NCBI GenBank assembly: GCA_044892525.1
Contig: CM097886.1
Span: 126,666,124-126,730,000, forward strand
Length of the DNA stretch: 63,877 bases
Origin: Schmidtea polychroa
Lineage: Eukaryota
Direction: 5' to 3'
Shown here: positions 14,142 through 40,701 of the stretch, one piece after another
How positions within the stretch are numbered: the first letter of the stretch is position 1
Layout: each line of letters starts with the position of its first letter
Translations under genes and position numbers: made by a program
The notes under the pieces: model-generated
Databases searched by the model: none
Seen by the model: the letters and a program-made list of their open reading frames with translations, nothing else
What the model was told of the DNA's origin: nothing

Positions 14142-15879
14142 TCTATTTTCATTACTTGATGAAAAATGTAAAGAAAATTACTAGAAATTAAATAAGGAAA
14201 ATTTTACAAATTTATATTATTTACTATATCCGATAAAACAAAGATTATCATAATAACATTGTTGAAAATATTATTAATGTGCTAAATGTTTTACGATAAA
14301 ATTCTCAATTAAATATATCTTGCTTTAATTTTTAGAATAATTAAAAAAAATTATTTGAATTTGATAAAAATTGTCGTGTTTTAAAGTTTATTTACAACTC
14401 TTTCAAACTTAGAAATATGTTTAATGTAATATAACCATAGTCAATAAATATGAGTAAAAAATTATGTAAATATCAGCATAATAATGCAAAGACAATATGT
14501 GGACAGACATCAAGGGAATGCGAGGGATCTTAGTCTCTGATTTGAAAGGTTCAGTGATAATAAGTGATTTTACTTGCACAACTGGGGCCTGATCTTATCA
14601 TTATTTTGCTCCTAGATAATCTCTATTTCTAGCTGTCTTATTTATATTTTGGTGAGTTACGAGTGGAAAAACTATACTCGATTTGATTTGTCAATACTTT
14701 CAATCCTAGCCCTTTCCCGCCGTAAATACATATAATTATTTAACAGATCGATAAATGTCATCATCACAAGGACTGCTAATGCCATGACACGCCCCTGGGT
14801 TAACGGGTTTACCATGGAAGGTATAGCGCCCTCTCCCCTCCTGTCATTTTTCATTCATTTTAAATCTTTGTCTTCGATTTTTATCTAAGATTTTCGTATC
14901 AATATTTTTGATTAATGAAAAACGAAATTGTATGAATTTGGTTTAATCTGGAACATCCTATGATCATGTATTTGGATTATATCATATTAATTCGTAGTTT
15001 ATCTAATGACTTGACTAATATTGTTAACTAATGTCGTCATATTTTATTTATTCTTCGAATATTTTGATTTCAATCTATTTCGAGTGGACAACACTCTTCT
15101 TGATCGCAAGATAGTAATATTTTTATTAGCCTTCGGTCATTTAATAACTTAAACTAAATTGGATATGAATAAAATGTTTAGTTTGAGAATATAATATAAA
15201 ACAAAATTTATAAAAAAAAGTTATATCAACACAGTATAAGCGTTATAACCATATAATCATATCAAAAATTATAAAAAATGTATTTTTGTTGATTGACTCT
15301 AGACCTCATTGAGTGGATATATATGCTTGTACCAATTTCTTTTTATTGTTGACTGGGTAGGGCTTAGCTGGTTTTCTTAAATTACTGATGTTGTTGGTTG
15401 TTGTTATTAGAGCTTCTAATGCGGGAAATAGTTCTTGTTTTGAATATATCAGAGCTGGTCCGACACCCGCATCCGTGTGTACTTCAGCCCGCATTTTAAT
15501 TATTTTCTGCGCCTATTCTTGAATCGCAATTCTTAAATCTCGCATAACTTCTAGGTCTTCATTGCGAAACTTCCTAAGATCCCTATTAGCTTGTGTAACT
15601 TTTTTAAATAGTCGGGCTGGAACCAAATGGGCTCCATTCGTCTGCAATGCCGGACTTTCGATTCGGATCGTTCCGCCAACCAAGCGCCTTCTTTAAATAG
15701 GCCTAAATCTTCTCGAAATGTTTCCATTTGACCCACTAAGCAATTTATAAAATTATGATAACACTGTGACAATGTTACGTCCACGAATACTGATAGTAAA
15801 TAAACATCACGATGATTAAATGTGGTGGGTTACCTGTGGTAAGCATTTGCATATCGACCATATTGACATTCAAAACAAT

Positions 15880-16969
15880 TGTTGAGGTCTCGATATTCGG
15901 GAACACTCAACTTACTGGTTCTTATATATATAACAAAACAAATAAAGACGTATATAAAGGTTTATTGAAAGTAAAATTTACCAAATATAATCCAATTACA
16001 ATTCTGAACAATCGATACTCGTTTGTTAAATTCTCCAACTGAAATGCGTGCAAAAGAAAGTATGTTTATTGTTATTTGTTGTGTGTGCGTGTTGTGTCTT
16101 CGTAAGCTTTTACTATTTGTGAATCGTTTTGTGCTGATTCAAATGATTGAATTATCCTCAGGATTTACCTTCGAATATAAAATCTTTGCGCTATTTTTGG
16201 GCGACTAAAACTAATTTTTCGTTGCTATTTATATAAAATTTTAGGGCAGCTGTTATTTTATAAATTAATTATTATTATTTTTTATAGTTTAAATAATTAG
16301 TTTTCGTTTTATTTCAAGAGGCACTTATTAATTATTCAATTTTTTCCATACGACTATTATCTTGTTTTGAAGAACACTTATTATTTCTAGAATATTTTTT
16401 CAGCTGATTATGAATAAAATTTTTCAACTGTTTAAAGAATTTATAAAATTTTTTGTTATATTGAATATCGAATTAAAATTAATTAAAATTTATTGTTATC
16501 AAATTAAAATTATTAAAATATTTTTCCCTTGTATATAATTAAGATGTTAACTAATAAAATCTATTAAATACATACACCCGATAAAATATTAACATTCTAC
16601 ATAAATATTCAAACGGAAAATAAGATAAAAATATTCAGACGGAAAATAAGATAAAATATACATATAAATAAGATAAAATATACATGGATTGTCACAATTG
16701 TTAATAAGATAGAATAGTCAATTATATTTACACAATTGTTGATAAGATAGAATATGCATAGTTTGCTCGACGATTTAGTCAGTTTTCAGATTGCTGGGTT
16801 GTCTTTGGGTTGAATTGATTTGCTTGAAATTGGGTTGGAATATTTATTGTTGGAATATTTATCTATCTGCGCTCTTCGGCGTACACATTTACTCTATATT
16901 TTTTGGGCCCTGTCCTGTAGTATTTGTCTAGGGTAAATGTAGTGATGGGCCTACCCTCATCATCTAACA
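15880..16969 (-). repeat. 3' LTR (1090 bp)
   Basis: Direct repeat of 28389-29478; minus strand begins TGTTAG and ends CTCAACA; one mismatch spotted by eye (16223 T vs 28732 C). Confidence 0.97.
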
Positions 16970-19193
16970 TTCCTCCCTGGGCCGTTAAGATAATGTCCGC
17001 ATTATCTCTTATACTGCGTACCAGCTCGATTTCGCTGTCTCTTATCAGCATCCTCGTTTTGTTGAACCCTTTTGCCAATGCGAGATTCAATGTGTCGCCA
17101 TCATTTATACGCCTTCCAAAATGTCGGGTCAATTCCTTTTCTGTAATCTGCTTCTTCTCCTTGGGTATGATAAAATTGGGTTCCTCCTCGATTGCGATAT
17201 CTGGTTCCGGTCCCAATTCGTCTATATCCATATTTTCCTCCTCTTGCTCGTTGATTGAGAAGTATTCCTCATCAGAGTCGAGGTCGCATTCCATTAGTTT
17301 TCCTGGATGGAATTTTGGTTCCTGTAATTCCAGTTTGACTGTTGCTTCAGGTATTCGTATTTTCTCCTCTTCGATGAATATTACGTCGTCATCGCTTTCC
17401 ATTAATTCATTTTCGAAAGTCCTGCGTGTCCCGTCTTTATTAAATTTCAATTCGATTTGCGATGGTTCTATATAAATATCTTCTTCATCGCCCGACATAT
17501 CCTCCAGACTACTTTCTTTAATGGGATATAACTGATCTTTCATTTGTTGTTCACTGAAGGCGCCTGAGTCCCATTTAACAACTTCTTCCCATTGATTTTC
17601 TACGATTGCATATATCACTTTGACGATCATCGTGGTTTGCCATGCTGGAAATGGTTCTGGTTCACGCAGCATTCTATTTATGCGTTTATCTTTGTCCCAC
17701 CTTTTGTGATGTCTGATTACCTGGTATGCCAGGTTGGACAATTTTATCTTGTGTGGCGCAACGTTTTTGACGTACGAGCACATAAATATATCTTCCGACA
17801 TTTCTCTAACTCCCATAACATTATAGAGATCTAATGTGAGAGCTTTGAGTTTTCCAATGATGTCGAATCCTACGACTATTTTTCCGCAAAGTAACTGTTG
17901 GATTTCGACCAGTGCTTCGTATTCATTTTTATTTCCGATGATATTTTCCTTGTTGGCCTTTGTCTTCTCTGGATAATAATGTAGGATTTTCGTTCTAGGT
18001 GTAATTTTCTCATCAAATATTGTTACACCCTTAAAATTCCGTATGCTGACCTCTACTGGCCTTAAGTTATTGTTGATGTCGCATACTAATTTTGCATCTA
18101 AAAACATTATCAGATGATGTCTCTCCGCCGTGGATAATTCTTTGTGGGTAAATGACATTTTTCTTCTGATGAAATCTCCATGCATATAAATGTTTGATTT
18201 AATGAGTTCCAACTGCTGAAATGGATTTGGGATAGTGGGTATGTATAATATTTCGATCGCTATGACACAGGGTAGGCTGTTCATTTGGACTATCAATTCA
18301 TTGTAGTCGTTTGGGACACTCCGATCATTTTTTGTAGTTTTTATTGTTATGGTGCAATTGCTCGTGGTGATCAACGGTATCCTTTGTTGGCATATTGCTA
18401 CCTCTGTTTTTGTGATGTGAAATAAAATTCTATGGGGCACTTTCTTTCCAGCTCTTGCAGCCTCCTCTGCATTGGGGAATTTGTCATACGCTCCGATTAA
18501 TTCTCTTAATTTGACTCTTCTTGCTTCGTTAAATTTGATAAGATGCAATTCCCTTTCTTCTATCTCGATTTTCATATCATTAGGAATGCATACTTGGTTG
18601 GGGAAACTTCTAATAGTAATGGGAGTACCATCTGTGCTGATCTTATTTTGCAGGTTTTTATAGAAACTGTGGTAGTGTTTCTGTAACATCGGCACATATT
18701 GCCTTATTTTCTGAGTTTCAGGATTTCGCTGAGGTTTTGTTCTTTGAGAATGCATGTGAACTGACGTATGTGGGTGCATTGATTTGTTTGAATGAAGACG
18801 ATTGGATTGATTAGATTGGCTGATTTGATTTTGGGTTATTGGAGGATCGATTTGATTAGACTGATTTATTTGGGGATTGATTTGACTGAATTGATTCGAT
18901 AAACTTCTTATTACTATTCTAAAAACAAATAATAAATAATTATGCTTGTTGCGCATTTGAGGTTTAACCTTATACGCAGTTATATAAATATTAATATATA
19001 TACTTTTATTATATATCATTGACCAATTTATGTAATTAAAATTTTTTAAGTTATTATACCAGTGTGGACAGAGTATATTGTCCAGGGATATATTTGTCCA
19101 AGTGAAAATGCCCTGGTGCTTCTTTGACCAGTCGGTGCCGATACCGCTGCCTTTTCCACTTGTACTTTTTATAAACTTGTACACTAGTGACAA
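16863..19193 (-). CDS. Accessory ORF3 with a degenerate REX4/ISG20-like DEDDh exonuclease domain (~17600-18115) and an acidic tail. The track start is TTG; first ATG at ~19019
   Basis: FLDAKLV...VSIRNFKGVTIFDEKITP...LLCGKIVVGFDI...KLSNLAYQVI parallels REX4/ISG20 vAlDCEMV...vSiVn..G.vlyD.yVkP...lkgrIlVGHal...sLk.La. Confidence 0.7.
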   Translation of the reverse strand: MSLVYKFIKSTSGKGSGIGTDWSKKHQGIFTWTNISLDNILCPHWYNNLKNFNYINWSMIYNKSIYINIYITAYKVKPQMRNKHNYLLFVFRIVIRSLSNQFSQINPQINQSNQIDPPITQNQISQSNQSNRLHSNKSMHPHTSVHMHSQRTKPQRNPETQKIRQYVPMLQKHYHSFYKNLQNKISTDGTPITIRSFPNQVCIPNDMKIEIEERELHLIKFNEARRVKLRELIGAYDKFPNAEEAARAGKKVPHRILFHITKTEVAICQQRIPLITTSNCTITIKTTKNDRSVPNDYNELIVQMNSLPCVIAIEILYIPTIPNPFQQLELIKSNIYMHGDFIRRKMSFTHKELSTAERHHLIMFLDAKLVCDINNNLRPVEVSIRNFKGVTIFDEKITPRTKILHYYPEKTKANKENIIGNKNEYEALVEIQQLLCGKIVVGFDIIGKLKALTLDLYNVMGVREMSEDIFMCSYVKNVAPHKIKLSNLAYQVIRHHKRWDKDKRINRMLREPEPFPAWQTTMIVKVIYAIVENQWEEVVKWDSGAFSEQQMKDQLYPIKESSLEDMSGDEEDIYIEPSQIELKFNKDGTRRTFENELMESDDDVIFIEEEKIRIPEATVKLELQEPKFHPGKLMECDLDSDEEYFSINEQEEENMDIDELGPEPDIAIEEEPNFIIPKEKKQITEKELTRHFGRRINDGDTLNLALAKGFNKTRMLIRDSEIELVRSIRDNADIILTAQGGMLDDEGRPITTFTLDKYYRTGPKKYRVNVYAEERR
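16970..16978 (-). promoter_or_regulatory. Polypurine tract
   Basis: Minus strand AGGGAGGAA immediately abuts TGTTAG of the 3' LTR. Confidence 0.85.
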
Positions 19194-22100
19194 TTGCTAA
19201 AATCGCGAATGATACTACACTTGTAGCTATTACATAAAAAGGCCATTGTGGTTTACTTGCTTTCTTTTGAAAGACTTGTAATTCGTTCCAGTTATTTATA
19301 ACTATCGGTTTTCCTGTAGGTAATTTTATCAGTTTCCTATCAGACTGTCTTGGATTTTTCATTATTAATTTTTTATATATTTGTCTAACCGCTTTAAATG
19401 TCGTTTTCCTATATATATTCGTTATCGTTTGTGATATAGGATGTGTGGGTGTTGAATTTATAGTAGTTGTTTTTCTGGTTGTTGATATCTTCTTTCTTTT
19501 TGGTTTTCTTATTCTAAGTCTGTTTATTTTAGTAGTTTTTAGTCTTTTGCACCCTATCTGTGATGTGTCAACTAATGTATTCCATTGTGCACAAAGTGTG
19601 TAATTAGTGTTGGGTTGTAGATTTCCGAATTCAACATTATCCCCTCTTTCAAATTCATTAGTTGATCTATTTTCAATTTTTTTCATAAGTTTGGGTATAT
19701 TATCCCTAGTTTCCAGATACAAGTCTCTTATTGGTGATTTATTTAAGTTATATACTCTAATTTTATATGGTGAAATGTTGATTAAAATATCTTCAGCCAT
19801 GTATTCTACTGAGTGTATGTTCTCGTTTTCTACTTCAGTTGATTTACACAACCCTATAATTGTTAAAAATGTCGCTGCCATCATCAGTGCTTTTTGTGAT
19901 CGTAATCCATATTTGTGAGGTGGTTTTTCTACTAACTCAGTTTCTGCTAATTTGCATCTGTTAACATGTACTATTATAGGATCCTCATTTTTATGTTTTT
20001 GTAAATGCAGGTTTTCATGTATTACTTTTACTACCTCGTATGGTCCTTTAAATGGTCTTGCTAATTTAGTTGTTTTGCCTTTTCCTACTTGTGGAGACAT
20101 AAGTCTAACCTTATCTCCCACTTTAAAATTATGAGGTTTGCTATTTTTATCGTAATCTGCTTTATATTGTTCTTGTCTGAATTTAACTTTTAAATTTGCA
20201 ACCTTGTATACCTCTTGTAATCTCTCTTGCATTAATGTTACATAATCTGGCGCATCTAAATATTGTGATACTCGAGGCTCAAAAATTGTATCAATCGGTG
20301 TCGCAGGCTCTCTTAAGAACATTAGAAAATATGGTGAATATCCCGTTGTCTCATTTGGTGTGATATTATGGATGTATGTACATTGATTAACGTATTCATC
20401 CCAATCATTTTGGTTTTTTCCCACAAACACAGCTAATCTACTTAGCAATGTCCCATTGAATCTCTCTACTAAACCATCGGTCTGAGGGTGGTATGCTGTT
20501 GTATTGATTTTATGCATGTTAAATATGTTAGCTACTCTTTTTATAGTTTCACTCATGAAATTTTTCCCTTTATCTGTTAATAATTTTCTTGGTGTACCGA
20601 TTTTAAAGATTATTTTTTCCACAAGTAATTTAGCTACTGTTTCTGCTGTTTCATCTTTTGTAGGAAATGCCTCTGCCCATTTTGTAAAATAATCGCTAAA
20701 AACTAGTATGTGCTTATTCCCCTTAATTGTTGTGGGTAGTTTACACAAAAAATCCATTGCGCACAATTCCATTGGTGATGTTGTGGCTGGGATTGGATGT
20801 AAAGGTGCTTTAGTTTTTGTTCCTGTATTTTTTCTAGTTGCGCATATTGTGCATGCATTACACCATCTCTTGACATCCTTTTTCAAATCGTCCCAATAAT
20901 ATTTTTGCATCAATCTGCTTGCTGTTTTCCTACTTGATAAATGACCTCCTAAAGCACCATCGTGGTATTGTAACAGAAGAATTTGTCTTAATCTTTGTGG
21001 TACTACTATTAATTGTTTACCGCTAAAATCCTCAATAACAATTAACTTCTTACAGATTTTATACTTTTGGTTAGTTCCCTTTTTTATTTCTTCTCTTATC
21101 TTGAAGAGTTCTGGATCTTTCATTTGTTCCTCATATATTTCTATTGGTTTTTCGGTTACTAATGCAAAAACTTCTAGTGCTCCTAACTCTGGAATTCGTG
21201 ATAATGCATCTGCATTCCTGTTTATTCTACCTGGTTTATATGCAATCTTTATGTGCATGTCTTGTATTTTCATTGCCCATTTTAACAGTCTACTGGATGT
21301 ATCTTTATGTTTCCATAACCCTTCTAATGGCTTATGGTCTGTTCTAATTACTACTTCAGTTCCATATATGTATGGTTTAAATTGTTTTAATGCAAAAACT
21401 ATAGCATAACATTCTTTCTCAATTGTTGAGTACCTAATCTGTGCTCCTTTTAATGTTTTGCTTGCATAAGCTATTACATAATCTTTACCCTTTTCCTCTT
21501 CTTGTCCTAAGACTGCCCCTACGGCCTTCCCGCTGGCGTCTGTCATGACAATAAACTGTTTTTTAAAGTCTGGGTATCTTAGTATCGGTGCTGTTATTAA
21601 TTTTTCTTTTAGTTGATCAAAAGCTTTTTGATGTTCATCTTTCCATTTCTTTTGTGGCTTGTTAATTTTATCGTTAATTTCCTGCACTATTAACACTCCT
21701 TTACTCTCTCCCTTTGTTTTGACTCCTTTTGTTAATTCAATTAGTGGTGCTGCTATTTTTGCATAATCTTGTATGAATTTACGATAATATCCTGTGAGAC
21801 CTAAAAATCCCTGTACTTGTTGTAATGTTTTTGGAACTGGGAATTTTTTAACTACTTCAATTTTATCGGGATTAGGTATTATACCATCTACTGTAACTAT
21901 ATGTCCCAAGAATAATGCTGAGGGTTCTGCCCATTTACACTTAGTGGGTTTTATTTTGATTTTTGCTTTTCTTAATCTTTCTAGTACGTTAGCTATATCT
22001 TTTAGATGTTCCTCAAATGTTTTTGATGAAATTAATATATCATCCATGTATACTGCGCAATGTTGTACGTCTACTAATACTGTATTCATTAAACGTTGAA

Positions 22101-24696
22101 ATGTTGCTGGCGCATTAGTTAACCCAAAAGGTAATCTTGTATATTCATATAAACCGTCTTCTATCACAAAAGCTGTCTTTTCCGCATCCCCCTCTTCCAT
22201 TTGAATTTGCATGTAGCCTTTATTTGCATCTATTACTGTGAAATATTTAGTATCTCTAAGTTTATCATATTGTTCTTGTGCTTTTGGGAATGGGTATGAG
22301 TCTTTTACTGTTACATCATTTAATTTACGATAATCAATGCACATTCGAATTTCCCCGTCTTTCTTTCTAACTGGTACGATAGGTGATGCCCATTGTGAAA
22401 AACTTTGTTTTATTACGCCTGCCTCTTTTAATTCTTTAATTTGTCGTTTTATTTCCTCCCTCAGTTTATATGGTACACTATAGGGTCTCTGTTTTATTGG
22501 TCTAGCATTCCCTGTATCGATTACATGTTTGATAATGTCAGTATCTCCTAAATCAGATTCGTGTTTTGCAAAAACATCACTGTATTCGTCAAGTAATATT
22601 TGTAGTTGTAGTTGTTGTGTTTCGTTTAGATAATTATTATTTATTTTAATTTTATCATAAAATTTGATATTATTCGCTCTACTCTGTTCGACCATTCTTT
22701 CACTGACATCCTTCGTCATCGACATCTCACATACTTCAAATGTTTGCTCTAATTCACCTTTGAACAACTTTCCCAATTTTGTACCTTTATGAATTTTTAC
22801 TTTATTTCTTTCGTAATTCGCGATTCTTATTGGAATTATCCCATTATTTGGAATTACACACTCGTCTGTTAACATTACGTTATGATTTCGTGATATTGCC
22901 GTTTCAGGCTCGAAAATGAAAGTGTCCTCACTTTTAACATTAACTTTTACTGGAATTATATGATCACTTTGATACTCTAGTTCAAATGTCTCTAATGCAA
23001 TTACCTCAGTAAATCTTGCGTCTTGATATATTGCCTTCCGTTTGACTGTACTATCCGTTAAATCGATTACACAGTTTTTTAACTTTTTGAGTATGTCCAT
23101 CCCAAGGACACATACGCATTTACATTCTGCTACTACCTTGAAGACATGTTCAACCACTTGATCCGAAAAGTGGACTGTTAATTCGATATCTCCTTTTAAT
23201 GGTATGTAATGTGATGATAATGAAATTACTCTATCTCTTGTGCTCACGATATTTTTCCTTTGGTTTCCGGTTAACTGATCTTCACGAATCATAGAAGCTG
23301 CTGCTCCTGTGTCACATAATGCCTTTATTATCGTATCATTTATCACTATTTGTAATTTAGGCCTTACTTCATTTAACCCTTCTAATATATCGTCAAGTTC
23401 TAACCCGTAACATCCATAAGTTTTCCTTGGAACACCATGACAATTACCATTTTCACCTGGGATTCTTATTTCAATATTATTTCTCAATTCTGTCAATTGT
23501 TCTCTTTGATTATCATATAACCCAATATGTGGTTGCTCAATATTTTCTGATCTGTTTGTATCGTCCTCTTTTTCATTGGTGATCATTATTTCACCCTCTT
23601 CCCTTCGACTTTTCATCCGCTTGATTTCCTTATCGTGCCTCGCAGTGATCAAATATTTGGCTATGAATGGACATAAACATGCTACCATTTTATATGAATT
23701 ACCAAAGACTTGTCTCAGTTGTCTTAACGAAACTAATGATGAGCAAATCATTTTCAATAGTGCTACTGTATAATATATGCCCAGTATAGTGGAAAATGTG
23801 TTACCGAGAATCGCAAAATATCCCCATATGCTGTATAATACTCTATACACAACTTTCCTGAAGTGCTCTTTTGATAATAATACATCAAAGTTGTAATTCC
23901 CTCCATAACTATTTTCGATGATTTTGTTTACCATGATAGAAAGAACTTTTTCTTTTTCATGAGGAAATAACATATGTTTTCTGGCGCTCTCTATCGCCTC
24001 TCTCGTATACATCCCATTGTTATCCATTTCGTTGACTTCCTGAAATTCTAACTTTTTCTCAAGTTCAGTTAGTTCTAGTTTTTGTGGTTTAGTCGCTTCT
24101 TTTCTATCTGACATTGTAATCCACATATCATCATTTATTTTGTATAATGGATCTAATAGATTAGTACATTTATCAATTTTTCTCGGAACATAGTCTTTAT
24201 CTGTTAATATCCTTATTATTGGTTGGAGGTATACAGTTTCTCCTTTATACACTACTGGCAATTCGTTTGTGCACTTATTATTCGTTGCTAACGATACGCT
24301 AACCGGTTTACACTGAAATGTTTGTATTACTTTGCCGACAACTCTTGCAAATGTCCCTTTTTCTGCAAATAAAATTGGTGCCATTAAATCTGGGTTTGTG
24401 ACTGCAACCGCCATCTTTGTTCTTAAAATTTCTCTGTTAAATTTACAATCGTTTGCAATAGTTGCTTGATATACTTTGTCCAATTGTACTAACTGATGAT
24501 GATAAAAGTAGTCGATTTTATTATTAAAATATGACGCTAGCTTGACATCGAATTTATCTATTCTTGATTTTGCCTCTTTAATTTCACTTCCGCTGATATA
24601 AATTCCCTCGTAATTTGTTTGTATGACTGCCTTACCACATTTAATACTTTCACCTTTTCCCACAAACCTCATCGCCTCTGTTTTAGAATCTGACAT
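19054..24696 (-). CDS. pol: Polyprotein: glycoprotein C-terminal half + TM, then PR, RT, RNase H, integrase (GPY/F), then a second signal peptide, ectodomain and TM
   Basis: 1880-aa ORF; LCDTGA (23305-23313), CIDYRKLN, YMDD (22039-22050), TDASG, HHCC, MDF/TDKG/VERFN, RPFKGPY; hydrophobic stretches flank the enzymatic core. Confidence 0.95.
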   Translation of the reverse strand: MSDSKTEAMRFVGKGESIKCGKAVIQTNYEGIYISGSEIKEAKSRIDKFDVKLASYFNNKIDYFYHHQLVQLDKVYQATIANDCKFNREILRTKMAVAVTNPDLMAPILFAEKGTFARVVGKVIQTFQCKPVSVSLATNNKCTNELPVVYKGETVYLQPIIRILTDKDYVPRKIDKCTNLLDPLYKINDDMWITMSDRKEATKPQKLELTELEKKLEFQEVNEMDNNGMYTREAIESARKHMLFPHEKEKVLSIMVNKIIENSYGGNYNFDVLLSKEHFRKVVYRVLYSIWGYFAILGNTFSTILGIYYTVALLKMICSSLVSLRQLRQVFGNSYKMVACLCPFIAKYLITARHDKEIKRMKSRREEGEIMITNEKEDDTNRSENIEQPHIGLYDNQREQLTELRNNIEIRIPGENGNCHGVPRKTYGCYGLELDDILEGLNEVRPKLQIVINDTIIKALCDTGAAASMIREDQLTGNQRKNIVSTRDRVISLSSHYIPLKGDIELTVHFSDQVVEHVFKVVAECKCVCVLGMDILKKLKNCVIDLTDSTVKRKAIYQDARFTEVIALETFELEYQSDHIIPVKVNVKSEDTFIFEPETAISRNHNVMLTDECVIPNNGIIPIRIANYERNKVKIHKGTKLGKLFKGELEQTFEVCEMSMTKDVSERMVEQSRANNIKFYDKIKINNNYLNETQQLQLQILLDEYSDVFAKHESDLGDTDIIKHVIDTGNARPIKQRPYSVPYKLREEIKRQIKELKEAGVIKQSFSQWASPIVPVRKKDGEIRMCIDYRKLNDVTVKDSYPFPKAQEQYDKLRDTKYFTVIDANKGYMQIQMEEGDAEKTAFVIEDGLYEYTRLPFGLTNAPATFQRLMNTVLVDVQHCAVYMDDILISSKTFEEHLKDIANVLERLRKAKIKIKPTKCKWAEPSALFLGHIVTVDGIIPNPDKIEVVKKFPVPKTLQQVQGFLGLTGYYRKFIQDYAKIAAPLIELTKGVKTKGESKGVLIVQEINDKINKPQKKWKDEHQKAFDQLKEKLITAPILRYPDFKKQFIVMTDASGKAVGAVLGQEEEKGKDYVIAYASKTLKGAQIRYSTIEKECYAIVFALKQFKPYIYGTEVVIRTDHKPLEGLWKHKDTSSRLLKWAMKIQDMHIKIAYKPGRINRNADALSRIPELGALEVFALVTEKPIEIYEEQMKDPELFKIREEIKKGTNQKYKICKKLIVIEDFSGKQLIVVPQRLRQILLLQYHDGALGGHLSSRKTASRLMQKYYWDDLKKDVKRWCNACTICATRKNTGTKTKAPLHPIPATTSPMELCAMDFLCKLPTTIKGNKHILVFSDYFTKWAEAFPTKDETAETVAKLLVEKIIFKIGTPRKLLTDKGKNFMSETIKRVANIFNMHKINTTAYHPQTDGLVERFNGTLLSRLAVFVGKNQNDWDEYVNQCTYIHNITPNETTGYSPYFLMFLREPATPIDTIFEPRVSQYLDAPDYVTLMQERLQEVYKVANLKVKFRQEQYKADYDKNSKPHNFKVGDKVRLMSPQVGKGKTTKLARPFKGPYEVVKVIHENLHLQKHKNEDPIIVHVNRCKLAETELVEKPPHKYGLRSQKALMMAATFLTIIGLCKSTEVENENIHSVEYMAEDILINISPYKIRVYNLNKSPIRDLYLETRDNIPKLMKKIENRSTNEFERGDNVEFGNLQPNTNYTLCAQWNTLVDTSQIGCKRLKTTKINRLRIRKPKRKKISTTRKTTTINSTPTHPISQTITNIYRKTTFKAVRQIYKKLIMKNPRQSDRKLIKLPTGKPIVINNWNELQVFQKKASKPQWPFYVIATSVVSFAILAIVTSVQVYKKYKWKRQRYRHRLVKEAPGHFHLDKYIPGQYTLSTLV

Positions 24697-25094
24697 GTAT
24701 ATTGTTGAATTATCGTTGCTCGTCGTTTTTGGTCTTTGATATTCTTGGAATCTACATCCGTGAACTGTTTACATCGTATCGTTCTGAATTTCAGTGTCTT
24801 TAGTTTAGTTAGATGGCATTCGTATTTATTTACCTTGTATATGATCATTGACTCACCTGTATCGCAGCTTGTCTCATCTAATGTACAGAACTTATGTGTC
24901 ATCATTTTCTTTGATGAACTATCAAATGACGCCTTGAATTTCCTTAATTCAATATAATATTGTCATCTTACTACAATATTGTCTGCCACGTGCCCCCATA
25001 TTTTATATGTTCCTCCTTCACAATATCCTCCTATTGATGACCATCCAACGACATTTACTAATTGCCTTACTCGTGCTCCTACCTGAGCATTTAA
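24669..25094 (-). pseudogene. Disrupted middle part of the glycoprotein ectodomain
   Basis: The gag frame continues past TAG (25095) and TGA (~24957) as LNAQVG...GGYCEGGTY...VVR*QYYIEL...FCTLDETSCDTG, then shifts frame into the pol ORF near 24770. Confidence 0.85.
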
Positions 25095-28000
25095 CTAAAA
25101 TCCATCCGGCGTTTTTATCTTTTTTGTTTTAAATGCATTTTCACATTCGATTGGTGCTATTATTATCGCTTCTGGTGCCCATGTTGGAGTTAATATTGTT
25201 CTCGCTATTTTATTACATACAAAACTTTCCTCTGAATATTTAACGATACATTCTCCTGCCTCAGTGTGAATGAAGTCAGACTCTTGATATATGTGAAAAA
25301 TCTTTGGATCTGCAACAATTAGTTTTGTTGGATTAGCCTCTGGGCAATTTTCTACATCTAATAATGAATATTTCTGTCCCCACTTAGGATTCTGACAGTC
25401 ATACGCTATGATCGCATTATTCCCTTTTATCAGATCTAATAACAATGTTATTACTATAATTACTATTGACATTGTCGACTTTCTTTCTTTTTGACTTGGT
25501 TTCATAGTTGTTTTATTTACTAGATTTTTTACTGTTTCCTCTGTATTATCTATTTCTACATTAATATTATCTTCTACGCTTTCCTGAGCACTTTCTATTA
25601 GACTCTCATCATACAGTATTTTCCATCCTCCCTTTAATTTTATCCATGGCATAGCATCTATCTTTAATTTATTATATATCATTTTAGCGATATTTTCTAT
25701 TTGATTCTTTGGATTCAATCGCAAAAGTTTCTTGTATCTTTCTATTAAATATGCCATTGCCGTAATCACTTTATCTCGATTAACTCCTGTTGTAAATAAT
25801 ATCTTTAACACTGTCTCTTCATTTGCTTCCTCTGCACTCAATTCTCTAATCTCTTTTTCCATTAATTTAATCTTTTTAACTATATTTTTTATTAACGCTG
25901 ATGGTTTTGCTTCCGGAAATCGTCTCGTATTCATTGCTTTAACTAACTCTGTTATCATTTTTATATCCTTGTCATTATCCTGATTTTTTGGGACTTCCTG
26001 TCTCATATTATTTGCAATATCTCTTAAACGCTCTGCTGCCTTTCTGTCATCTGACTTTTCGGCAATTTCCGATTTTCGAGGCCTTCCTCTACCTCGTCTC
26101 ATCGTCTCTGCGTCCTGCATATTTGCTTGTTTCGCAATTTTTTCTATTGTCTCATGTAAATTATCATATTTAGTATCAATAGGTTTAAAGATTTCCTCGC
26201 TAGCTGTTGGTGACCTCATTGCCCCTCCTGAAGAAGCATCCCACAATCTAAATAATTTATCATAGTCATTTTCGTCGTTTATACTCAATTCTACTGATGG
26301 AGTTGGTGTATCAATTTCTTTACTTTCTTGCCTTTCTATTACTGCAGAAATAATATTGTTATCAATGACGTTTACTCCATAGTCAATTATATATTCATTA
26401 TTCATCATTTCTACGCCGTTAAAATACAGTTTCACTTTATCATTATCTCCCAATTTCTCGGGCCAATTGGCTCTAGCCATCTGTTTCACTTTATTCACTT
26501 TTGTGCAAACATGTACCCCTGTACTACGCATAAGTAATCTCGAAAGGTCCTTTGCCTCAATAGTTATATTTAATGACTCATGTAATTTCTGATTTTTTCT
26601 CACAAATTCACCATAGCATTTTATCATTTCTTTCAATTCTATTTCTAATTCAAATACTCTTGTCATATTTTGTCTCTTTACCATTAGTGGTATCAAATTT
26701 CTCAAATATTCTAAGTCAATTCCTTCGACTTGAACTTTATTTATTATACGCAATGTCTCATTATCATCATAAGGCCATTTTTCTAATGTCTCTTTCAATT
26801 CTTCTTTTAACTCTTTACATCTATTTGTTTCTGCAAGAAATTTCTCATCCGCTTCTCTTGCTTCACGAAACTCATCATTATCTATATCTACATCATTGGT
26901 AAAACACTGAAACTCATTTAATGACATTTCTAACTTCCTCTCAATAAGTCTCCCATATTGAGTTTTAAATTCTTTTAATTCCTCCCTCAAACTGTTTATT
27001 TCATCATTAGCTGATATCAACTCAGCGCTATTAATCTGTTTTATCTCAGGCTCATTTTTAAATCTCACTCTATTAGGCGATTCGCTTCGCGCATTATTGC
27101 ATACTTTAGCTAAGTGACCATATTTCTGGCAGTTATAACATTTGATTTGTCCATTAAAATTTACTTTATCTCTACCATCATAATTATAAGGGCTCCCTCG
27201 CCTTTCTCTGTATGAATTCTGTCTATATGGACTTGTCTGTCTACGTCTCAATTCATTTGTATTATCTCTATTATCGTGTCTATTATTTCTATCATATTTA
27301 TTATTTCTCAAATTATTTCTACTAAAATCGACTCTATTATCTCTCGTATAATTATTTCTATTATATTCATAACGATTGTCTCTATCGAAAGTATTTCTAT
27401 TGTTTCTATTCTCAAAATTTCTATTTCTCACATTGTCAAACCTTCTCCTGTTTTCAGGCGATTGAATTCTATCTGGACTCGGGCTTACCCTTCGTCTATT
27501 TTTTACAAAGTTCAAATATAGTTGTTTCATCTCCTCCCAGGGGATGTTGTCATCTGACTTACCCAACTCAGATTTTACCTCTATGGGTTTTTGGATTTCC
27601 ATTGCATCTACATGTGAACTAAATCTATCTCGTTGTATTGCTTCTATACGCTTAGCTTTATGAACTAATTCGTTTAAATTACAATATTCTACCATAATTA
27701 GTGCTTTATATAAATATTTTTGTATACCATTCCAAAACTGATCCTCAATTAATTTTGCTGTGTGCTCCCCTGCACCAAATGCTTTTTTCGCTAACTCCGT
27801 AATTGTATATACATATTCACCAACTGATTCTCTAGTACCCTGATACCTGTTTCTAAATTTTTGAACGTTTATCTTTTGTAAATCGCTATCGATTACTATT
27901 TCTGCTCTCAGATATCTTACGAGTTGCTCAAAATTATTTCCTTTACATTCTAAGTTATTGTATGCCTGTAACGCATAACCTTTTAAATATAGTGGTATTC

Positions 28001-28175
28001 TCATTTTTAACTCATCAGGTGTCCACCCGCAAGCTTCTGCATACTGAGCGATCTCAGTGAAAAAATCGTCGAACTTTTCAGGCTCTCCTCTATATGGTTC
28101 TACTGGTAAAATTTTTATGTAATTATTATTATTATTATTCATTTTATAGACTATTCTATTTCTGAGATTATACAC
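25095..28175 (-). CDS. gag: Gag (capsid, CCHC knuckle, long extension with AT-hook) fused to an internal signal peptide and the N-terminus of a chuvirus-G-like glycoprotein
   Basis: YRGEPEKFDDFF...WTPDE..LYLKGYA capsid motif; CYNCQKYGHLAKVC; RRGRGRPRK; MSIVIIVITLLLDLIKGNNA followed by IIAYDC...YSLLDVENC. Confidence 0.9.
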   Translation of the reverse strand: MYNLRNRIVYKMNNNNNNYIKILPVEPYRGEPEKFDDFFTEIAQYAEACGWTPDELKMRIPLYLKGYALQAYNNLECKGNNFEQLVRYLRAEIVIDSDLQKINVQKFRNRYQGTRESVGEYVYTITELAKKAFGAGEHTAKLIEDQFWNGIQKYLYKALIMVEYCNLNELVHKAKRIEAIQRDRFSSHVDAMEIQKPIEVKSELGKSDDNIPWEEMKQLYLNFVKNRRRVSPSPDRIQSPENRRRFDNVRNRNFENRNNRNTFDRDNRYEYNRNNYTRDNRVDFSRNNLRNNKYDRNNRHDNRDNTNELRRRQTSPYRQNSYRERRGSPYNYDGRDKVNFNGQIKCYNCQKYGHLAKVCNNARSESPNRVRFKNEPEIKQINSAELISANDEINSLREELKEFKTQYGRLIERKLEMSLNEFQCFTNDVDIDNDEFREAREADEKFLAETNRCKELKEELKETLEKWPYDDNETLRIINKVQVEGIDLEYLRNLIPLMVKRQNMTRVFELEIELKEMIKCYGEFVRKNQKLHESLNITIEAKDLSRLLMRSTGVHVCTKVNKVKQMARANWPEKLGDNDKVKLYFNGVEMMNNEYIIDYGVNVIDNNIISAVIERQESKEIDTPTPSVELSINDENDYDKLFRLWDASSGGAMRSPTASEEIFKPIDTKYDNLHETIEKIAKQANMQDAETMRRGRGRPRKSEIAEKSDDRKAAERLRDIANNMRQEVPKNQDNDKDIKMITELVKAMNTRRFPEAKPSALIKNIVKKIKLMEKEIRELSAEEANEETVLKILFTTGVNRDKVITAMAYLIERYKKLLRLNPKNQIENIAKMIYNKLKIDAMPWIKLKGGWKILYDESLIESAQESVEDNINVEIDNTEETVKNLVNKTTMKPSQKERKSTMSIVIIVITLLLDLIKGNNAIIAYDCQNPKWGQKYSLLDVENCPEANPTKLIVADPKIFHIYQESDFIHTEAGECIVKYSEESFVCNKIARTILTPTWAPEAIIIAPIECENAFKTKKIKTPDGF

Positions 28176-28368
28176 TATTTCGGGTTGATTATCTATTTTA
28201 TCTTTTCGAATTATTTAATAATTTTCAAAACTGAATTTATTTATTTAAAAATTGGTCAATGATATTGTTTTTTTTTTTTATAAATATATTTTCCCAATAT
28301 AAAATACTATACCCTCTGATCTCAATTCCTATCCCCCAAATTGTGAATAACAATAATTGATTTTAAAG

Positions 28369-28386
28369 TCCCGGTTCGCGGCACCA
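28369..28386 (-). promoter_or_regulatory. Primer binding site, tRNA-Phe-like
   Basis: TGGTGCCGCGAACCGGGA 2 nt after the 5' LTR; complementary to a tRNA 3' end TCCCGGTTCGCGGCACCA, resembling invertebrate tRNA-Phe ends (tRNA identity is inferred). Confidence 0.8.
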
Positions 28387-28388
28387 AA

Positions 28389-29478
28389 TGTTGAGGTCTC
28401 GATATTCGGGAACACTCAACTTACTGGTTCTTATATATATAACAAAACAAATAAAGACGTATATAAAGGTTTATTGAAAGTAAAATTTACCAAATATAAT
28501 CCAATTACAATTCTGAACAATCGATACTCGTTTGTTAAATTCTCCAACTGAAATGCGTGCAAAAGAAAGTATGTTTATTGTTATTTGTTGTGTGTGCGTG
28601 TTGTGTCTTCGTAAGCTTTTACTATTTGTGAATCGTTTTGTGCTGATTCAAATGATTGAATTATCCTCAGGATTTACCTTCGAATATAAAATCTTTGCGC
28701 TATTTTTGGGCGACTAAAACTAATTTTTCGTCGCTATTTATATAAAATTTTAGGGCAGCTGTTATTTTATAAATTAATTATTATTATTTTTTATAGTTTA
28801 AATAATTAGTTTTCGTTTTATTTCAAGAGGCACTTATTAATTATTCAATTTTTTCCATACGACTATTATCTTGTTTTGAAGAACACTTATTATTTCTAGA
28901 ATATTTTTTCAGCTGATTATGAATAAAATTTTTCAACTGTTTAAAGAATTTATAAAATTTTTTGTTATATTGAATATCGAATTAAAATTAATTAAAATTT
29001 ATTGTTATCAAATTAAAATTATTAAAATATTTTTCCCTTGTATATAATTAAGATGTTAACTAATAAAATCTATTAAATACATACACCCGATAAAATATTA
29101 ACATTCTACATAAATATTCAAACGGAAAATAAGATAAAAATATTCAGACGGAAAATAAGATAAAATATACATATAAATAAGATAAAATATACATGGATTG
29201 TCACAATTGTTAATAAGATAGAATAGTCAATTATATTTACACAATTGTTGATAAGATAGAATATGCATAGTTTGCTCGACGATTTAGTCAGTTTTCAGAT
29301 TGCTGGGTTGTCTTTGGGTTGAATTGATTTGCTTGAAATTGGGTTGGAATATTTATTGTTGGAATATTTATCTATCTGCGCTCTTCGGCGTACACATTTA
29401 CTCTATATTTTTTGGGCCCTGTCCTGTAGTATTTGTCTAGGGTAAATGTAGTGATGGGCCTACCCTCATCATCTAACA
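28389..29478 (-). repeat. 5' LTR (1090 bp)
   Basis: Direct repeat of 15880-16969, followed by the PBS on the minus strand. Confidence 0.97.
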
Positions 29479-29503
29479 CAATACAATATATGATGAATTT
29501 CCT

Positions 29504-29640
29504 ATATTGAATTTCAAAACAATATTCAAAATAGCCAATATTTCATATTGAATTTCAAAACAATATTCAAAATAGCCAATATTTCATATTGAATTTCAAA
29601 ACAATATTCAATACTTATTGAATTTCAAAGCAGTATTCAA
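29504..29640. repeat. 41-bp tandem repeat (~2.6 copies plus a degenerate copy), likely hAT subterminal array
   Basis: atattgaatttcaaaacaatattcaaaatagccaatatttc at 29504, 29545 and 29586; adjacent to a hAT transposase fragment. Confidence 0.8.
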
Positions 29641-29699
29641 TATATATTGTTTTTGTCAATATATTGATTTGTTCAATAAACTGATATGGAGGATTCAGG

Positions 29700-30010
29700 A
29701 GCCCACGATCCTCTCAGTTCAAGGTAGTCAAAATAGCACTGCTTTGACATCTGTTGCCAAGGAAATGAAAGATTGCCTATTACTAATCAAGCCACCAAAG
29801 GGAACTGATGCACTTGACTGGTGGAGGATTCATAGTGAAAGGTTTCCATTACTTTCTTCCATGGCAAGACACTACTTAGCCATTCCAGCATCCTCAGCTT
29901 CTTCAGAAAGGACATTTTCCAAAACAGGTCAAATTGTAAACTGTCACCGAAAAAATTTAGCACCTGAACAGGTGAACAAATTGATATTCATTCATGAAAA
30001 CTTGAATAAA
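29700..30010 (+). mobile_element. hAT transposase C-terminal dimerisation domain fragment
   Basis: LDWWRIHSERFPLLSSMARHYLAIPASSASSERTFSKTG...LAPEQVNKLIFIHEN. Confidence 0.9.
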
Positions 30011-30845
30011 GTTTCAATTTCAAAACTGGACTTGTTGTTTTATTTTTTATCTTTAAATATATAAACAACAATCAAGAATTAAGATTAGACACAAATAAAC
30101 AATGAATGTATGAAATTATTATTTTAAATTTTTAAAAATGAGGAATTTCCTTTGGAGCCTCTTCGTTCAGATATCGATTCGGATCCTTCTCTCGTTTTTA
30201 TTCATTTCTCGATTCCGCAAATTTTTATTAATCGATTTCTGGATAAACTTTATCAATAACTTCCTAACTATAATCGAATTATAATCATAATTATAACTAT
30301 AATCGAATTCATGTTAAGGTTAAGAGGTACCCTAATTCAATTCATTATCTCCATCGAGCATATATTCGCCTCGAAGTACCTAAAATTGACTAACTTCATA
30401 GAAATGTCTCGAATAATTTTAAATTACTTGATATAAATTGTTGTTTTTACGAAATTAAAATTTTTACAAATAATTCAACAATTCTTACTACTGCATGCCT
30501 GCTGACAAATTCGAATTCCTTCAGATATCCTTTCTTTGTGATGAGCTTGTTGCTGGGAATCTTTCTTCTAGAACGTTGATCATTCGCTCTTCTGCCTTAA
30601 CTAAGTCTCCAAATTATCATCTGTATTAATTCGAGAAACAGAGAATCCGAATTTTGTTGACCGGCCTCACTCATACTCTTTTCCCTCTAGACTAAACTAC
30701 TTACGGGTATTTATATGTCCATACTTGTGTTATCTGTAGTGCATAAAAATTGTGATTATTCGCAAAATATTCCAATTATGATTTCAGTTTATATTAATAA
30801 TTTAACGAAATTTTATCGACTGTTATCATCAAACAAATTGTTTAA

Positions 30846-35517: not shown

Positions 35518-36513
35518 TCAAAATGCTGTCGATTCTTCCTCATATTTAACGTTTTGAACATTTTCAAACGCATCCACCGGAATTGAATTTGAATGACGCA
35601 AAACGTTTTCCCCATAGTTTGATTTGCGATTTCCAATTTGCTCTTTATTTTTCTGAAAATAGTCTCCTCTAGTACTCTTGCGAGCAAATCGCTTGACTGA
35701 CTTAATGAATATTTTGCCCACCACGAAAAAAAGCCAGAGCCTCGATATATAAGAGATATAGAGGTAACTAATGAAGAAAAATAGGTAGGTGGACAGGTAT
35801 CTAGAAACTGAACCGTATTCCAGTTGATTAAAGAAATGCTCGTAGAAAGTAACCAAATTTATTGGGAACTTCAACGAAATGTAACTCCATACAACGAAGG
35901 ATTCTTCATACCTTATATTGAGGGTTAATTTTAAGAAATATAATTCTCCCAAGAATACTATAAAACATATGAGACTTGTTATTAGAATTTTCAACAACTT
36001 TGACGAAATTATCGCGCATGTTCTTGATGAATAATTTGATTTACTGCGATTCAAGCGCTCCCTGCAGAATTGATCCCAACTTATTCGCACCTTAATCAAT
36101 CGGTGCAAGCGCATCATCTGAACGGCCAGAAAAATACAGCAGATTTGAGTGGAAAGGTAGCAAAGGTATACCAACAACATGTAGCTACAGAAGGCCTTAT
36201 CAGTCAATGAGACATGGATAGTTTCTACAGAATAAATTTATATAGACACTCGCTCAATGAAAACCTAACCAAATCCCAATAGTATCAGCGATCCTACTAG
36301 ATAAGATTTCATAAAATTTCGTGAGCATCCGGTTCCATTATTTTCTAGGCATTTCAAACGTTTTGGGATTTGAGCCTTAAATAAAAAGAATGGAAGACTT
36401 TTGACGTCGTCCACATGAATGATGTATTCGACAAAAACAAGGCACAAAATGAGGATAACAACGGCGAATTTGATCAAGAACAGATTCCAAATGAATATGC
36501 ATCGGCGAGACAT
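35518..36513 (-). CDS. Multi-pass membrane protein, GPCR/chemoreceptor-like (exons 36270-36513 and 35518-36224; 316 aa)
   Basis: A 45-bp GT-AG intron (36225-36269) joins two hydrophobic ORFs in phase; TM3-like FCSYMLLVYLCYLSTQICCIFLAVQMMRLHRL; several further hydrophobic helices. Confidence 0.6.
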
Positions 36514-40403: not shown

Positions 40404-40576
40404 TTAGGTTTTCATTGAGCGAGTGTCTATATAAATTTATTCTGTAGAAACTATCCATGTCTCATTGACTGATAACGCTTTTTGTAGCTACATGTTTTTT
40501 GTATACCTTTGCTACCTTTCCACTCAAATCTGCTGTATTTTTCTGGCCGTTCAGATGATGCGCTTGCACCGATTGA
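40404..40576 (+). repeat. 173-bp inverted copy of 36096-36268 (intron and exon piece of the GPCR-like gene)
   Basis: ttaggttttcattgagcgagtgtct...gcgcttgcaccgattga is the reverse complement of 36096-36268 with a few substitutions. Confidence 0.9.
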
Positions 40577-40701
40577 TAAAAATTACTCGCCCTACATAGC
40601 AAATAAGAAAAATATAGAAACCACCTGAATTGATAGAAAGGAATCAACTGAAAGTTATGAATAGGTCGTACCGAGGACCATATCAAATGTAAGTTCTAGG
40701 G

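Follow-up and report, generated by a model that had tools for sequence, protein, structure and literature searches.

A Burro-like Ty3/gypsy element of Schmidtea polychroa with an in-frame class III fusogen and a predicted second membrane protein behind integrase

Introduction

The gypsy-like LTR elements Burro (GYPSM1) of Schmidtea mediterranea encode a single polyprotein in which Gag, SUMO-like (Ubi2), and BCL2 domains precede an env that is placed in frame ahead of pol; this env matches mononegavirus fusion glycoproteins and is followed by protease, reverse transcriptase, RNase H, and integrase (PR-RT-RH-IN) (Arkhipova and Yushenova 2019, PMC6431247). Ty3/gypsy elements of the order GAG-ENV-POL with an HSV/gB-type env have been catalogued in Nematoda, Bryozoa, and Platyhelminthes (Chary and Hayashi 2026, PMC13524379), and the main text of that paper gives no match for polyprotein, single ORF, fused, or Bcl-2. 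The nematode noncanonical endogenous retroviruses are metaviruses whose glycoprotein was captured from an RNA virus and whose env stands ahead of pol (Sacco et al. 2022, cited in PMC13524379), and LTR elements of bdelloid rotifers have a DEDDy exonuclease as ORF3 (Rodriguez et al. 2017, PMC5408684).

Here we describe an element from a 63,877-nucleotide stretch of S. polychroa contig CM097886.1 (the window). The preliminary description of this DNA knew of no Gypsy clade with env ahead of pol, a statement refuted by the relevant passages of PMC6431247 and PMC13524379. As the architecture is already catalogued, the claim of novelty is lost while the observation stands, and since elements with env set in one frame between gag and pol have already been published, no new clade is needed.

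Going by the same passages, the window family shares with Burro an env that continues the gag frame, follows SUMO-like and BCL2 domains, and runs on in frame into pol; the SUMO-like domain is in the corresponding position (PMC6431247). The window element is smaller (13.6 kb and ∼3,050 amino acids [aa] versus >30 kb and 4,873 aa), has one CCHC knuckle where Burro has three, and gives no Pfam matches to the MATH, BIR, and ankyrin cargo of Burro (PMC6431247). Because of its 13.6-kb length and the lack of this cargo, we consider it Burro-like and not Burro itself. A post-integrase membrane protein and a 3′ exonuclease, both discussed below, go unmentioned in the part of the Burro account used here (PMC6431247).

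The catalogued Platyhelminthes_Rhabditophora_Smed_errantivirus_3 is, like the window element, a Ty3/gypsy element of GAG-ENV-POL order with a gB-type env, and 58 of 72 residues of its env row match the window glycoprotein (G) over the stretch compared by eye (PMC13524379). Five exact motifs of that row occur in none of 39 copies of the window family, which is thus a sister subfamily. With a Ty3/gypsy POL, a gB-type ENV ahead of it, and multiple copies, the window element belongs to the GAG-ENV-POL HSV/gB-type errantiviruses. Its G also shares protein family PF24664 and fold with the G of Chuviridae/Monjiviricetes and the env of mosquito BEL/Pao (Anakin) elements but, unlike the latter, sits in a Ty3/gypsy polyprotein; stand-alone G proteins of ∼650 aa are ∼20 to 26% identical to it. 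The bdelloid elements likewise captured a 3′-5′ exonuclease as a 3′ ORF, DEDDy in their case, whereas that of the window element is ISG20-like (DEDDh), has degenerate motifs, and accompanies a fusogen (PMC5408684).

Results

Limits, class, and age of the element. The Ty3/gypsy element is 13.6 kb long and occupies positions 15880-29478 on the minus strand. The preliminary description had recognized a Gypsy element, correctly, and placed it at 19054..28175, which lies inside the element but falls short of its real extent with LTRs, primer-binding site, and polypurine tract. That description further overlooked two domains (SUMO-like and Bcl-2), the membrane module behind integrase, and the 3′ ORF. 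The features are as follows.

29479-29482 and 15876-15879, target duplication, 4 bp, ATTG
28389..29478, minus, 5′ LTR, 1,090 bp, ends TGTT...AACA, one mismatch versus the 3′ LTR
28369..28386, minus, primer-binding site, TGG-initiated 18-mer 2 nt past the LTR
27099..28142, minus, Gag with capsid-like region, Arg/Asn-rich stretch, and one CCHC knuckle at 27146-27099 (zf-CCHC)
26340..26459, minus, ubiquitin/SUMO-like domain, weak (PF11976, E 0.047)
25623..25889, minus, Bcl-2-like domain directly ahead of SP1 (PF00452, E 3.2e-6, under the curated cutoff)
25413..25478, minus, SP1, putative internal signal sequence by hydropathy, with a predicted signal-peptidase site ahead of IIAYDC
23830..25412, minus, class III fusion glycoprotein ectodomain, chuvirus-G/gB-like (PF24664 and AlphaFold model of a natural uninterrupted copy)
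23811-23725, minus, G transmembrane helix by hydropathy, within the region 23640..23811
also within 23640..23811, minus, second helix after the G transmembrane helix, weakly hydrophobic, Pro-broken, basic residues on both sides, topology predicted
23077..23370, minus, aspartic protease, DTG at 23313 (RVP PF00077)
21259..22371, minus, reverse transcriptase and RNase H, YMDD at 22050 (RVT_1, RT_RNaseH)
20485..21003, minus, integrase zinc finger and catalytic core (Integrase_H2C2, rve)
19840..19896, minus, SP2, putative second internal signal sequence, in frame behind integrase, dN/dS 0.05-0.15
19522..19800, minus, fibronectin type III (FN3)-fold ectodomain (AlphaFold pLDDT 73.7 from 4 sequences)
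19054..19521, minus, Thr-rich/basic stalk, TM2 (19236-19180), short basic tail, and stop; tail end T-L-V, a class I PDZ-type motif
16863..19196, minus, separate 3′ ORF, 777 aa stop to stop, exonuclease domain and then acidic tail
∼18176-17574, minus, ISG20-like DEDDh exonuclease domain, catalytic motifs degenerate
∼16978-16970, minus, polypurine tract, followed by the 3′ LTR (16969-15880)

Besides the LTRs, target duplication, primer-binding site, and polypurine tract, assignment to Metaviridae (Ty3/gypsy) follows from the PR-RT-RH-IN order and a Ty3-like reverse transcriptase, whose best PDB match is Ty3 RT (E 4e-83; foamy, 3e-36; MLV, 1e-25). The RT_RNaseH and Integrase_H2C2 matches are of the Ty3/gypsy type, not BEL/Pao, and neither Peptidase_A17 nor a BEL-type Gag, the domains expected of Belpaoviridae such as Anakin, was matched in Pfam at E 0.1. 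A pattern search for a tRNA end matching the primer-binding site found none. The LTRs differ at 1 of 1,090 bases, and the element is a young, recently inserted copy of a multicopy family, with a broken G. The Pol-side frame (19054-24768, minus) comprises the C-terminal half of G, the hydrophobic segment, protease, RT, and RNase H as well as integrase; its PR-RT spacer of ∼250 aa, where a dUTPase-like domain would be expected of a Burro-like planarian element, is under purifying selection and has no dUTPase Pfam match.

Gag and its fused domains. In a related family, whose Gag N terminus is 36% identical to that of the window element, Retrotrans_gag (PF03732) is matched at E 8.6e-9. For the SUMO-like domain, ubiquitin (PF00240) is matched in a related family at E 3.7e-4. 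A profile of six sequences of the Bcl-2-like region finds Bcl-2/Bcl-xL chains at E 6e-5. The Gag-side frame (25095-28214, minus) runs without a stop through MSIVIIVITLLLDLIKGNNA into IIAYDC, with the mature G predicted to start at 25412, in agreement with the earlier observation that Gag leads straight into a signal-peptide-like stretch.

The fusion glycoprotein. SP1 recurs in all 16 relatives listed as a hydrophobic core and a small-residue cut site before xYDC/xFDC. Small residues occupy −1/−3 in most relatives; the Asn at −3 in the window element is atypical. Neither the sister subfamily nor most relatives conserve the Met found ahead of SP1 in the window element; SP1 is therefore more than just the beginning of a separate gene.

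PF24664 (Monjiviricetes fusion glycoprotein) matches both halves of the window G (E 2.5e-6 and 1e-70), and its match to a natural copy with uninterrupted G has E 4e-80. The AlphaFold model of a natural uninterrupted G (pLDDT 90.7) has a central helix of 48 residues, and its closest folds are chu-like virus G (E 1e-38, TM up to 0.76) and herpesvirus gB (HSV gB, Z 9.9, rmsd 7.0, 394 aligned). When PDB sequences were searched with G, no match was found at E 1, and the gB link comes from folding alone. Family membership together with the gB-like fold and its long central helix identifies G as a class III fusogen. Here the preliminary description held up well: the motifs that it quoted all lie on the minus strand where it had put them, the ectodomain that it likened to chuvirus G has the viral class III glycoprotein fold in the structural comparison that it had proposed, and the hydrophobic transmembrane segment(s) expected at ∼23700-23850 were found at 23811-23725. 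In the copy counted, G has no N-glycosylation sequon versus 3.2 expected (P = 0.02). From its sequence, the second helix is likely in-plane, which would place the protease in the cytosol; it could instead be a second pass, putting the protease in the lumen.

The G of the window copy is broken in three places, by stop codons in frame at 25095-25097 and at 24963-24965 and by a shift of frame near 24708, a point that the preliminary description did not make plainly. These breaks are private, as none of 39 other copies shares 25- to 30-nt words across them. Since translation of its own frame cannot yield Pol, the window copy was likely mobilized in trans.

Copies, frame integrity, and selection. 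From 285 candidate copies, 40 were scored and 39 fetched. Unbroken copies encode one polyprotein of ∼3,050 residues, arranged as Gag, SUMO-like, Bcl-2-like, SP1, class III fusogen, TM, PR-RT-RH-IN, SP2, FN3, stalk, and TM2. The CCHC and FN3 marks lie in a single stop-free frame, taking in Gag, G, and Pol together, in 7 of the 27 copies having both, which supports the single Gag-G-Pol frame postulated earlier; the genome search proposed along with it did find intact single-ORF copies, with G fused in frame and not a separate ORF. By segment, the frame is open from CCHC to PR in 12/32 copies, from G to PR in 32/38, and from IN to FN3 in 27/32. Junction breaks, tallied over aligned stretches only, are scattered (Gag/SP1/G, 8/36 copies at five places; G/PR, 1/38; IN/SP2, 2/33), and no junction has a break common to copies. 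The tally also returned 9 to 10 "shared" events at aa 2901-2910, which likely stem from the divergent stalk of one subfamily, because the copies concerned are open through the stalk.

G is under purifying selection (dN/dS of 0.027 in one pair; dN of 0.06 with saturated dS in another). The corresponding dN/dS values are 0.15-0.26 for the FN3 domain, 0.17-0.28 for TM2 and the tail, and 0.4-0.66 for the fast-evolving stalk. Polyprotein-embedded G forms one clade (21 of 108 tips, FastTree support of 0.99) in a set picked by likeness to the query.

A predicted membrane protein behind integrase. The post-integrase ectodomain has no Pfam fn3 match by sequence, but its model (pLDDT 73.7) is an all-beta sandwich of the ∼90-residue fibronectin type III fold. 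Its best solved match is a Dscam FNIII domain (Z 8.5, rmsd 2.8, 79 aligned), FN3 domains make up most of the top 50 structure matches, and FNDC5 is the Atlas lead; Z-scores of 7 to 8.5 are just slightly over background for small beta sandwiches. Four N-glycosylation sequons are present in the copy counted. A class I PDZ-type end is found in 21 of the 23 window-family copies scored and in four of five families of the S. polychroa genome (chance of ∼0.05 per tail); it is absent in one family of the same genome and in P0004, P0007, and P0018.

Four further families of this genome have the SP1-G-TM-Pol-SP2-ectodomain-TM2 layout, as do the outside polyproteins P0004 and P0007. Compared in sequence with the other families' tails, the window FN3 module shows no significant homology (hhalign E 0.097), no homologue was found for a sister family's tail among longer proteins or for the P0007 tail among shorter ones, and profiles of post-integrase tails have no meaningful match among PDB sequences. 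A literature search on FN3 proteins in LTR elements found nothing relevant, and the SP-FN3-TM module is absent from the published accounts of Burro and the GAG-ENV-POL elements insofar as these were used, although Repbase/GyDB, figures, or GitHub data may show it. This second predicted membrane protein is apparently an undescribed component.

The 3′ ORF. The 3′ ORF is 25% identical to that of a sister family (E 5.5e-16), which in turn matches ISG20L2/ISG20 (E 1e-9). Of the catalytic DEDDh pattern (DxE...D...H...D), a sister family keeps DAE and HSALED, each in 14/15 copies, whereas the window family reads D-A-K and lacks HSALxD in 10/10 copies. By eye, there is a candidate short intron near the ORF start (∼18969-18918).

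Discussion

We consider it probable that the intact family members encode a Burro-like four-pass polyprotein of ∼3,050 residues, from which signal peptidase releases G and the FN3 protein at the internal signals SP1 and SP2. The polyprotein is predicted to cross the endoplasmic reticulum (ER) membrane four times, with SP1 and SP2 serving as its internal signals and the host's signal peptidase cutting on the lumenal side. Gag/Bcl-2 would be held on the membrane by SP1, much as the core of hepatitis C virus (HCV) or flaviviruses stays tethered, and Pol would return to the cytosol between the G transmembrane helix and SP2, where the element's own protease would cleave the cytosolic parts. Particles may then bud at internal membranes with both surface proteins aboard, G serving fusion and the FN3 protein likely attachment or, through its PDZ-type end, placement at cell junctions. 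Consistent with such ER threading, the sequence has an internal signal, with small residues at −1/−3 among most of the relatives, and the TM is followed by a basic cytosolic side. A literature search on signal-peptidase processing of such a polyprotein returned nothing. A 1:1:1 yield of Gag, G, and Pol poses a difficulty for this model, one that splicing, early termination, or turnover of Pol would have to resolve.

The fusion might instead be merely genomic, with G and the FN3 protein coming mainly from RNAs that are spliced or start internally, in the manner of retroviral env, and the full-length polyprotein giving only Gag and Pol. This would remove the stoichiometry problem, and the window family does have a Met ahead of SP1 and Met residues within SP2. 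The former Met is not conserved, however, and Pol lies in frame 3′ of G on the full-length RNA with no shared stop or shift, so that ribosomes could arrive at Pol only by translating G with its signal; we regard this explanation as unlikely.

Slightly less likely still is a purely intracellular role, in which G and the FN3 protein anchor assembly and ER budding in an element that never spreads between cells. No other membrane anchor is obvious in Gag, and a sister-family copy, L104, lacking RT/IN, still has both membrane proteins. Strong purifying selection on the whole class III ectodomain and its conserved cysteines is nevertheless hard to explain without fusion, and the fast stalk suits an exposed protein. 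The three breaks in the window G might suggest a decaying endogenous viral element of chuvirus origin whose insertion into a Gypsy copy was a matter of chance, but this is ruled out by the open frames, the selection on G, and the private or scattered breaks, with G in frame and conserved across many copies and families and its embedded forms making up one clade.

Returning to the four-pass polyprotein, its topology predicts two signal-peptidase cuts and membrane tethering of both Gag and Pol. Paramyxoviruses and herpesviruses place attachment and fusion on separate proteins, and by analogy, Burro-like elements could be two-glycoprotein endogenous viruses: a four-pass polyprotein, processed by signal peptidase in flavivirus fashion, would yield a class III fusogen and, apart from it, a host-derived FN3 attachment protein with a PDZ-binding tail, spread would be aimed at planarian stem-cell junctions, and the tethered Bcl-2 would keep the producer cell alive. 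We offer this wider reading tentatively, as possible but short of probable. A surface protein additional to the fusogen and placed behind integrase would be new to env-bearing retrotransposons. It bears on how such elements find target cells and on whether, in an animal rich in stem cells, they pass from one cell to another.

A complete LTR element encoding one polyprotein

The window contains a complete LTR element whose 1090-bp LTRs end in TGTT...AACA and are flanked by a 4-bp target duplication (ATTG). A gap of 2 nt separates the 5′ LTR from the PBS, and a purine tract precedes the 3′ LTR. As the two LTRs differ at one base, the insertion is very young. Its parts are as follows.

Features of the window element (domains by Pfam)
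15880-29478, minus: complete LTR element (LTRs, target duplication, PBS, purine tract)
25095-28214, minus: long frame 1, 1039 aa; CCHC knuckle, Bcl-2-like domain, start of PF24664
19054-24768, minus: long frame 2, 1904 aa; rest of PF24664 (E 1e-70), then PR, RT, RNase H, integrase
19896-19840, minus: second signal-like stretch (SP2), in frame behind integrase
19236-19180, minus: last TM helix (TM2), after a Thr-rich stalk and before a basic tail
16863-19196, minus: long frame 3, 777 aa; 3′ ORF

PF24664 is the Monjiviricetes fusion glycoprotein. The solved structure nearest to the RT-RH region is that of Ty3 (E 4e-83, versus 3e-36 for foamy virus and 1e-25 for MLV).

The preliminary description placed Gag, the glycoprotein (G) and Pol in one frame. 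In the window copy, three breaks disrupt G: stops at positions 25095 and 24963, plus a frameshift near 24708. A DNA search of the host genome gave 285 candidates; 40 were scored (92-100% identity), and the 39 other than the window copy were examined. The Gag knuckle and a far C-terminal FN3 mark lie in a single stop-free frame in 7 of the 27 copies showing both marks, with stop-to-stop lengths of 2945-3090 aa, which bears out the one-frame reading. The frame is open from G into PR in 32 of 38 copies. Breaks fall at the junction of Gag, SP1 (the signal-like stretch before G) and G in 8/36 copies, at five different places, at the G-PR junction in 1/38, and at the IN-SP2 junction in 2/33. Because these breaks are scattered, the natural state of the element is a single polyprotein, without a programmed stop or frameshift.

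Words spanning the three breaks in G were sought in the 39 other copies and were present in none. With LTRs nearly identical but the frame broken, the window copy was probably copied in trans; the broken frame may also be an assembly error.

A class III fusogen between Gag and protease

An uninterrupted natural copy matches PF24664 at E 4e-80 (Pfam), and the AlphaFold model of G (119 sequences; pLDDT 90.7) has a central helix of 48 residues. When viral models were searched with Foldseek, chu-like virus glycoproteins headed the ranking (E 9.5e-39, with TM as high as 0.76). Among 48,161 solved chains, herpesvirus gB came first (Z 9.9; rmsd 7.0; 394 aligned), followed by class III proteins of thogoto-, rhabdo-, and baculoviruses. 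The modelled ectodomain has a viral-glycoprotein fold, and the initial reading of G as a chuvirus-G-like fusogen is supported by profile, model, and Foldseek ranking. Purifying selection on G is strong.

A search of 1.84 billion representatives yielded 1135 relatives of G at E 0.001. When 12 long relatives were scanned, G lay ahead of a protease in 10 and ahead of PR, RT, RH, and IN in 4. Embedded G sequences group in one clade of 21 tips among 108 (support 0.99), and most stand-alone G proteins of ~650 aa fall outside it. As the choice of tips favours sequences close to the query and the tree was rooted at its midpoint, we claim no donor of G. Other families of the same design are plentiful in the host genome, where 2581 candidates for PF24664 were counted and open frames reach ~3350 aa.

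The window itself holds a second, heavily decayed element of this design (41876-45141, plus), with G fragments 30-32% identical followed by RT. Relatives P0004, P0005, P0008, P0009, and P0016, from outside the host genome, carry two or three tandem aspartic-protease domains behind G, and P0004 has a further one behind integrase. Synonymous divergence between copy L019 and copies L113/L114/L035 varies strongly from domain to domain, with saturation in G against 0.5 in RT for one pair, a pattern that suggests recombination between subfamilies.

Predicted membrane topology

SP1 is hydrophobic, and in each of the 16 relatives compared it ends in small residues directly before xYDC/xFDC; as the Met preceding it is not conserved, SP1 reads as a putative internal signal sequence. 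Downstream of G, a long hydrophobic helix is followed by a basic loop, and this in turn by a weak, Pro-broken second helix and a strongly basic stretch. Under the positive-inside rule, these basic segments suggest a single membrane pass after G, with PR on the cytosolic side. G would enter the membrane system via internal SP1, and the one TM pass behind it would return PR to the cytosol. Three points count against this model: an Asn at −3 of the window SP1, the absence of N-glycosylation sequons from window-family G (P 0.02 by shuffling; 0-4 sequons in relatives), and the awkward Gag:Pol stoichiometry of such a polyprotein.

A predicted post-integrase FN3 membrane protein

The polyprotein frame runs on past integrase into SP2 and a domain of ~100 residues; a stalk rich in Thr then leads to a TM helix, and the frame closes with a short basic tail. 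In the model, which had only 4 sequences to draw on (pLDDT 73.7), the domain is an all-beta sandwich. Its best solved match is Dscam FNIII (Z 8.5; rmsd 2.8; 79 aligned), and FN3 domains make up most of the top 50. Atlas scores for FNDC5-like matches, which are leads only, were 0.89 for the window tail and 0.88 for another family's tail. The FN3 domain is under purifying selection (dN/dS 0.15-0.26), and the stalk evolves faster (0.39-0.66).

The same signal-ectodomain-TM ending occurs in four other families of the host genome (G ~40% identical) and in two outside polyproteins, with no significant sequence homology between their tails and that of the window. A class I PDZ motif matches the C-terminus of 21/23 window-family copies and of 4/5 families in the host genome, two of which are 50% alike and so not independent; the motif is absent from the three outside proteins scored. 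In the paper text that was searched, nothing relevant turned up on an FN3 protein or on signal-peptidase processing in such elements; by that measure the post-integrase protein seems to be undescribed.

A YxLRS/N motif, presumably resembling the foamy-virus Gag chromatin-binding motif, occurs at the Gag N-terminus (28175-28158) and again just ahead of SP2 (~19910-19897); it is found at both sites in several families (copies L098, L131, and L145).

The 3′ ORF and other features of the window

The 3′ ORF is related to that of a sister family, which matches ISG20L2/ISG20 (E 1e-9). The exonuclease catalytic motifs are kept in the sister family and lost in 10/10 window-family copies, where the frame is still open despite their loss. 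Exonuclease capture by LTR elements has been described in rotifers (PMC5408684). One sister-family copy (L104, G000:C52:142500-152490) is without RT, RH, and IN, but G and PR still share one frame with the second membrane protein, and an intact-looking ISG20-like ORF is kept as well; it is possibly a non-autonomous, envelope-supplying form.

An intronless 548-aa Pescadillo-like ORF (36863-38509, minus; PF06732 E 2.5e-71, BRCT) is flanked by 177-nt inverted repeats that are 97% alike (arms 36092-36268 and 40404-40580), and reads as a host gene copy that a DNA transposon possibly carried. The window also contains the following.

Other features of the window
29576-30064, plus: hAT transposase fragment, adjoining the 5′ LTR
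50291-51166, plus: DDE_1 (Tigger/pogo-like) fragment
57182-57781, minus: exon with EGF domains
58932-61041, minus: decayed Ty3/gypsy RT-RH-IN

Relation to described planarian elements

The feature is real and was well read from the raw sequence. Its supposed novelty, that no described Gypsy clade has a gag-env-pol order, does not hold, by the criterion set along with it, because the same order is already published for the planarian Burro elements (PMC6431247) and for gB-type Ty3/gypsy elements including a Schmidtea relative (Chary & Hayashi, PMC13524379). Burro shares with the window element the order of a SUMO-like domain, Bcl-2, and then G. In the window element, the SUMO-like match is weak, the Bcl-2 domain matches Pfam at E 3e-6, and its profile matches Bcl-2/Bcl-xL. 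PMC13524379 catalogues six Schmidtea elements; the env row given there for Smed_errantivirus_3 and the window G are alike at 58/72 residues in a by-eye comparison, and five exact motifs of that row were sought in 39 window-family copies and present in none.

A gag-env-pol polyprotein carrying a chuvirus/gB-type fusogen was thus already known from planarians. Within that design the window element is a compact, Burro-like form, and the one thing it adds to the published text searched is the predicted FN3 membrane protein encoded behind integrase.
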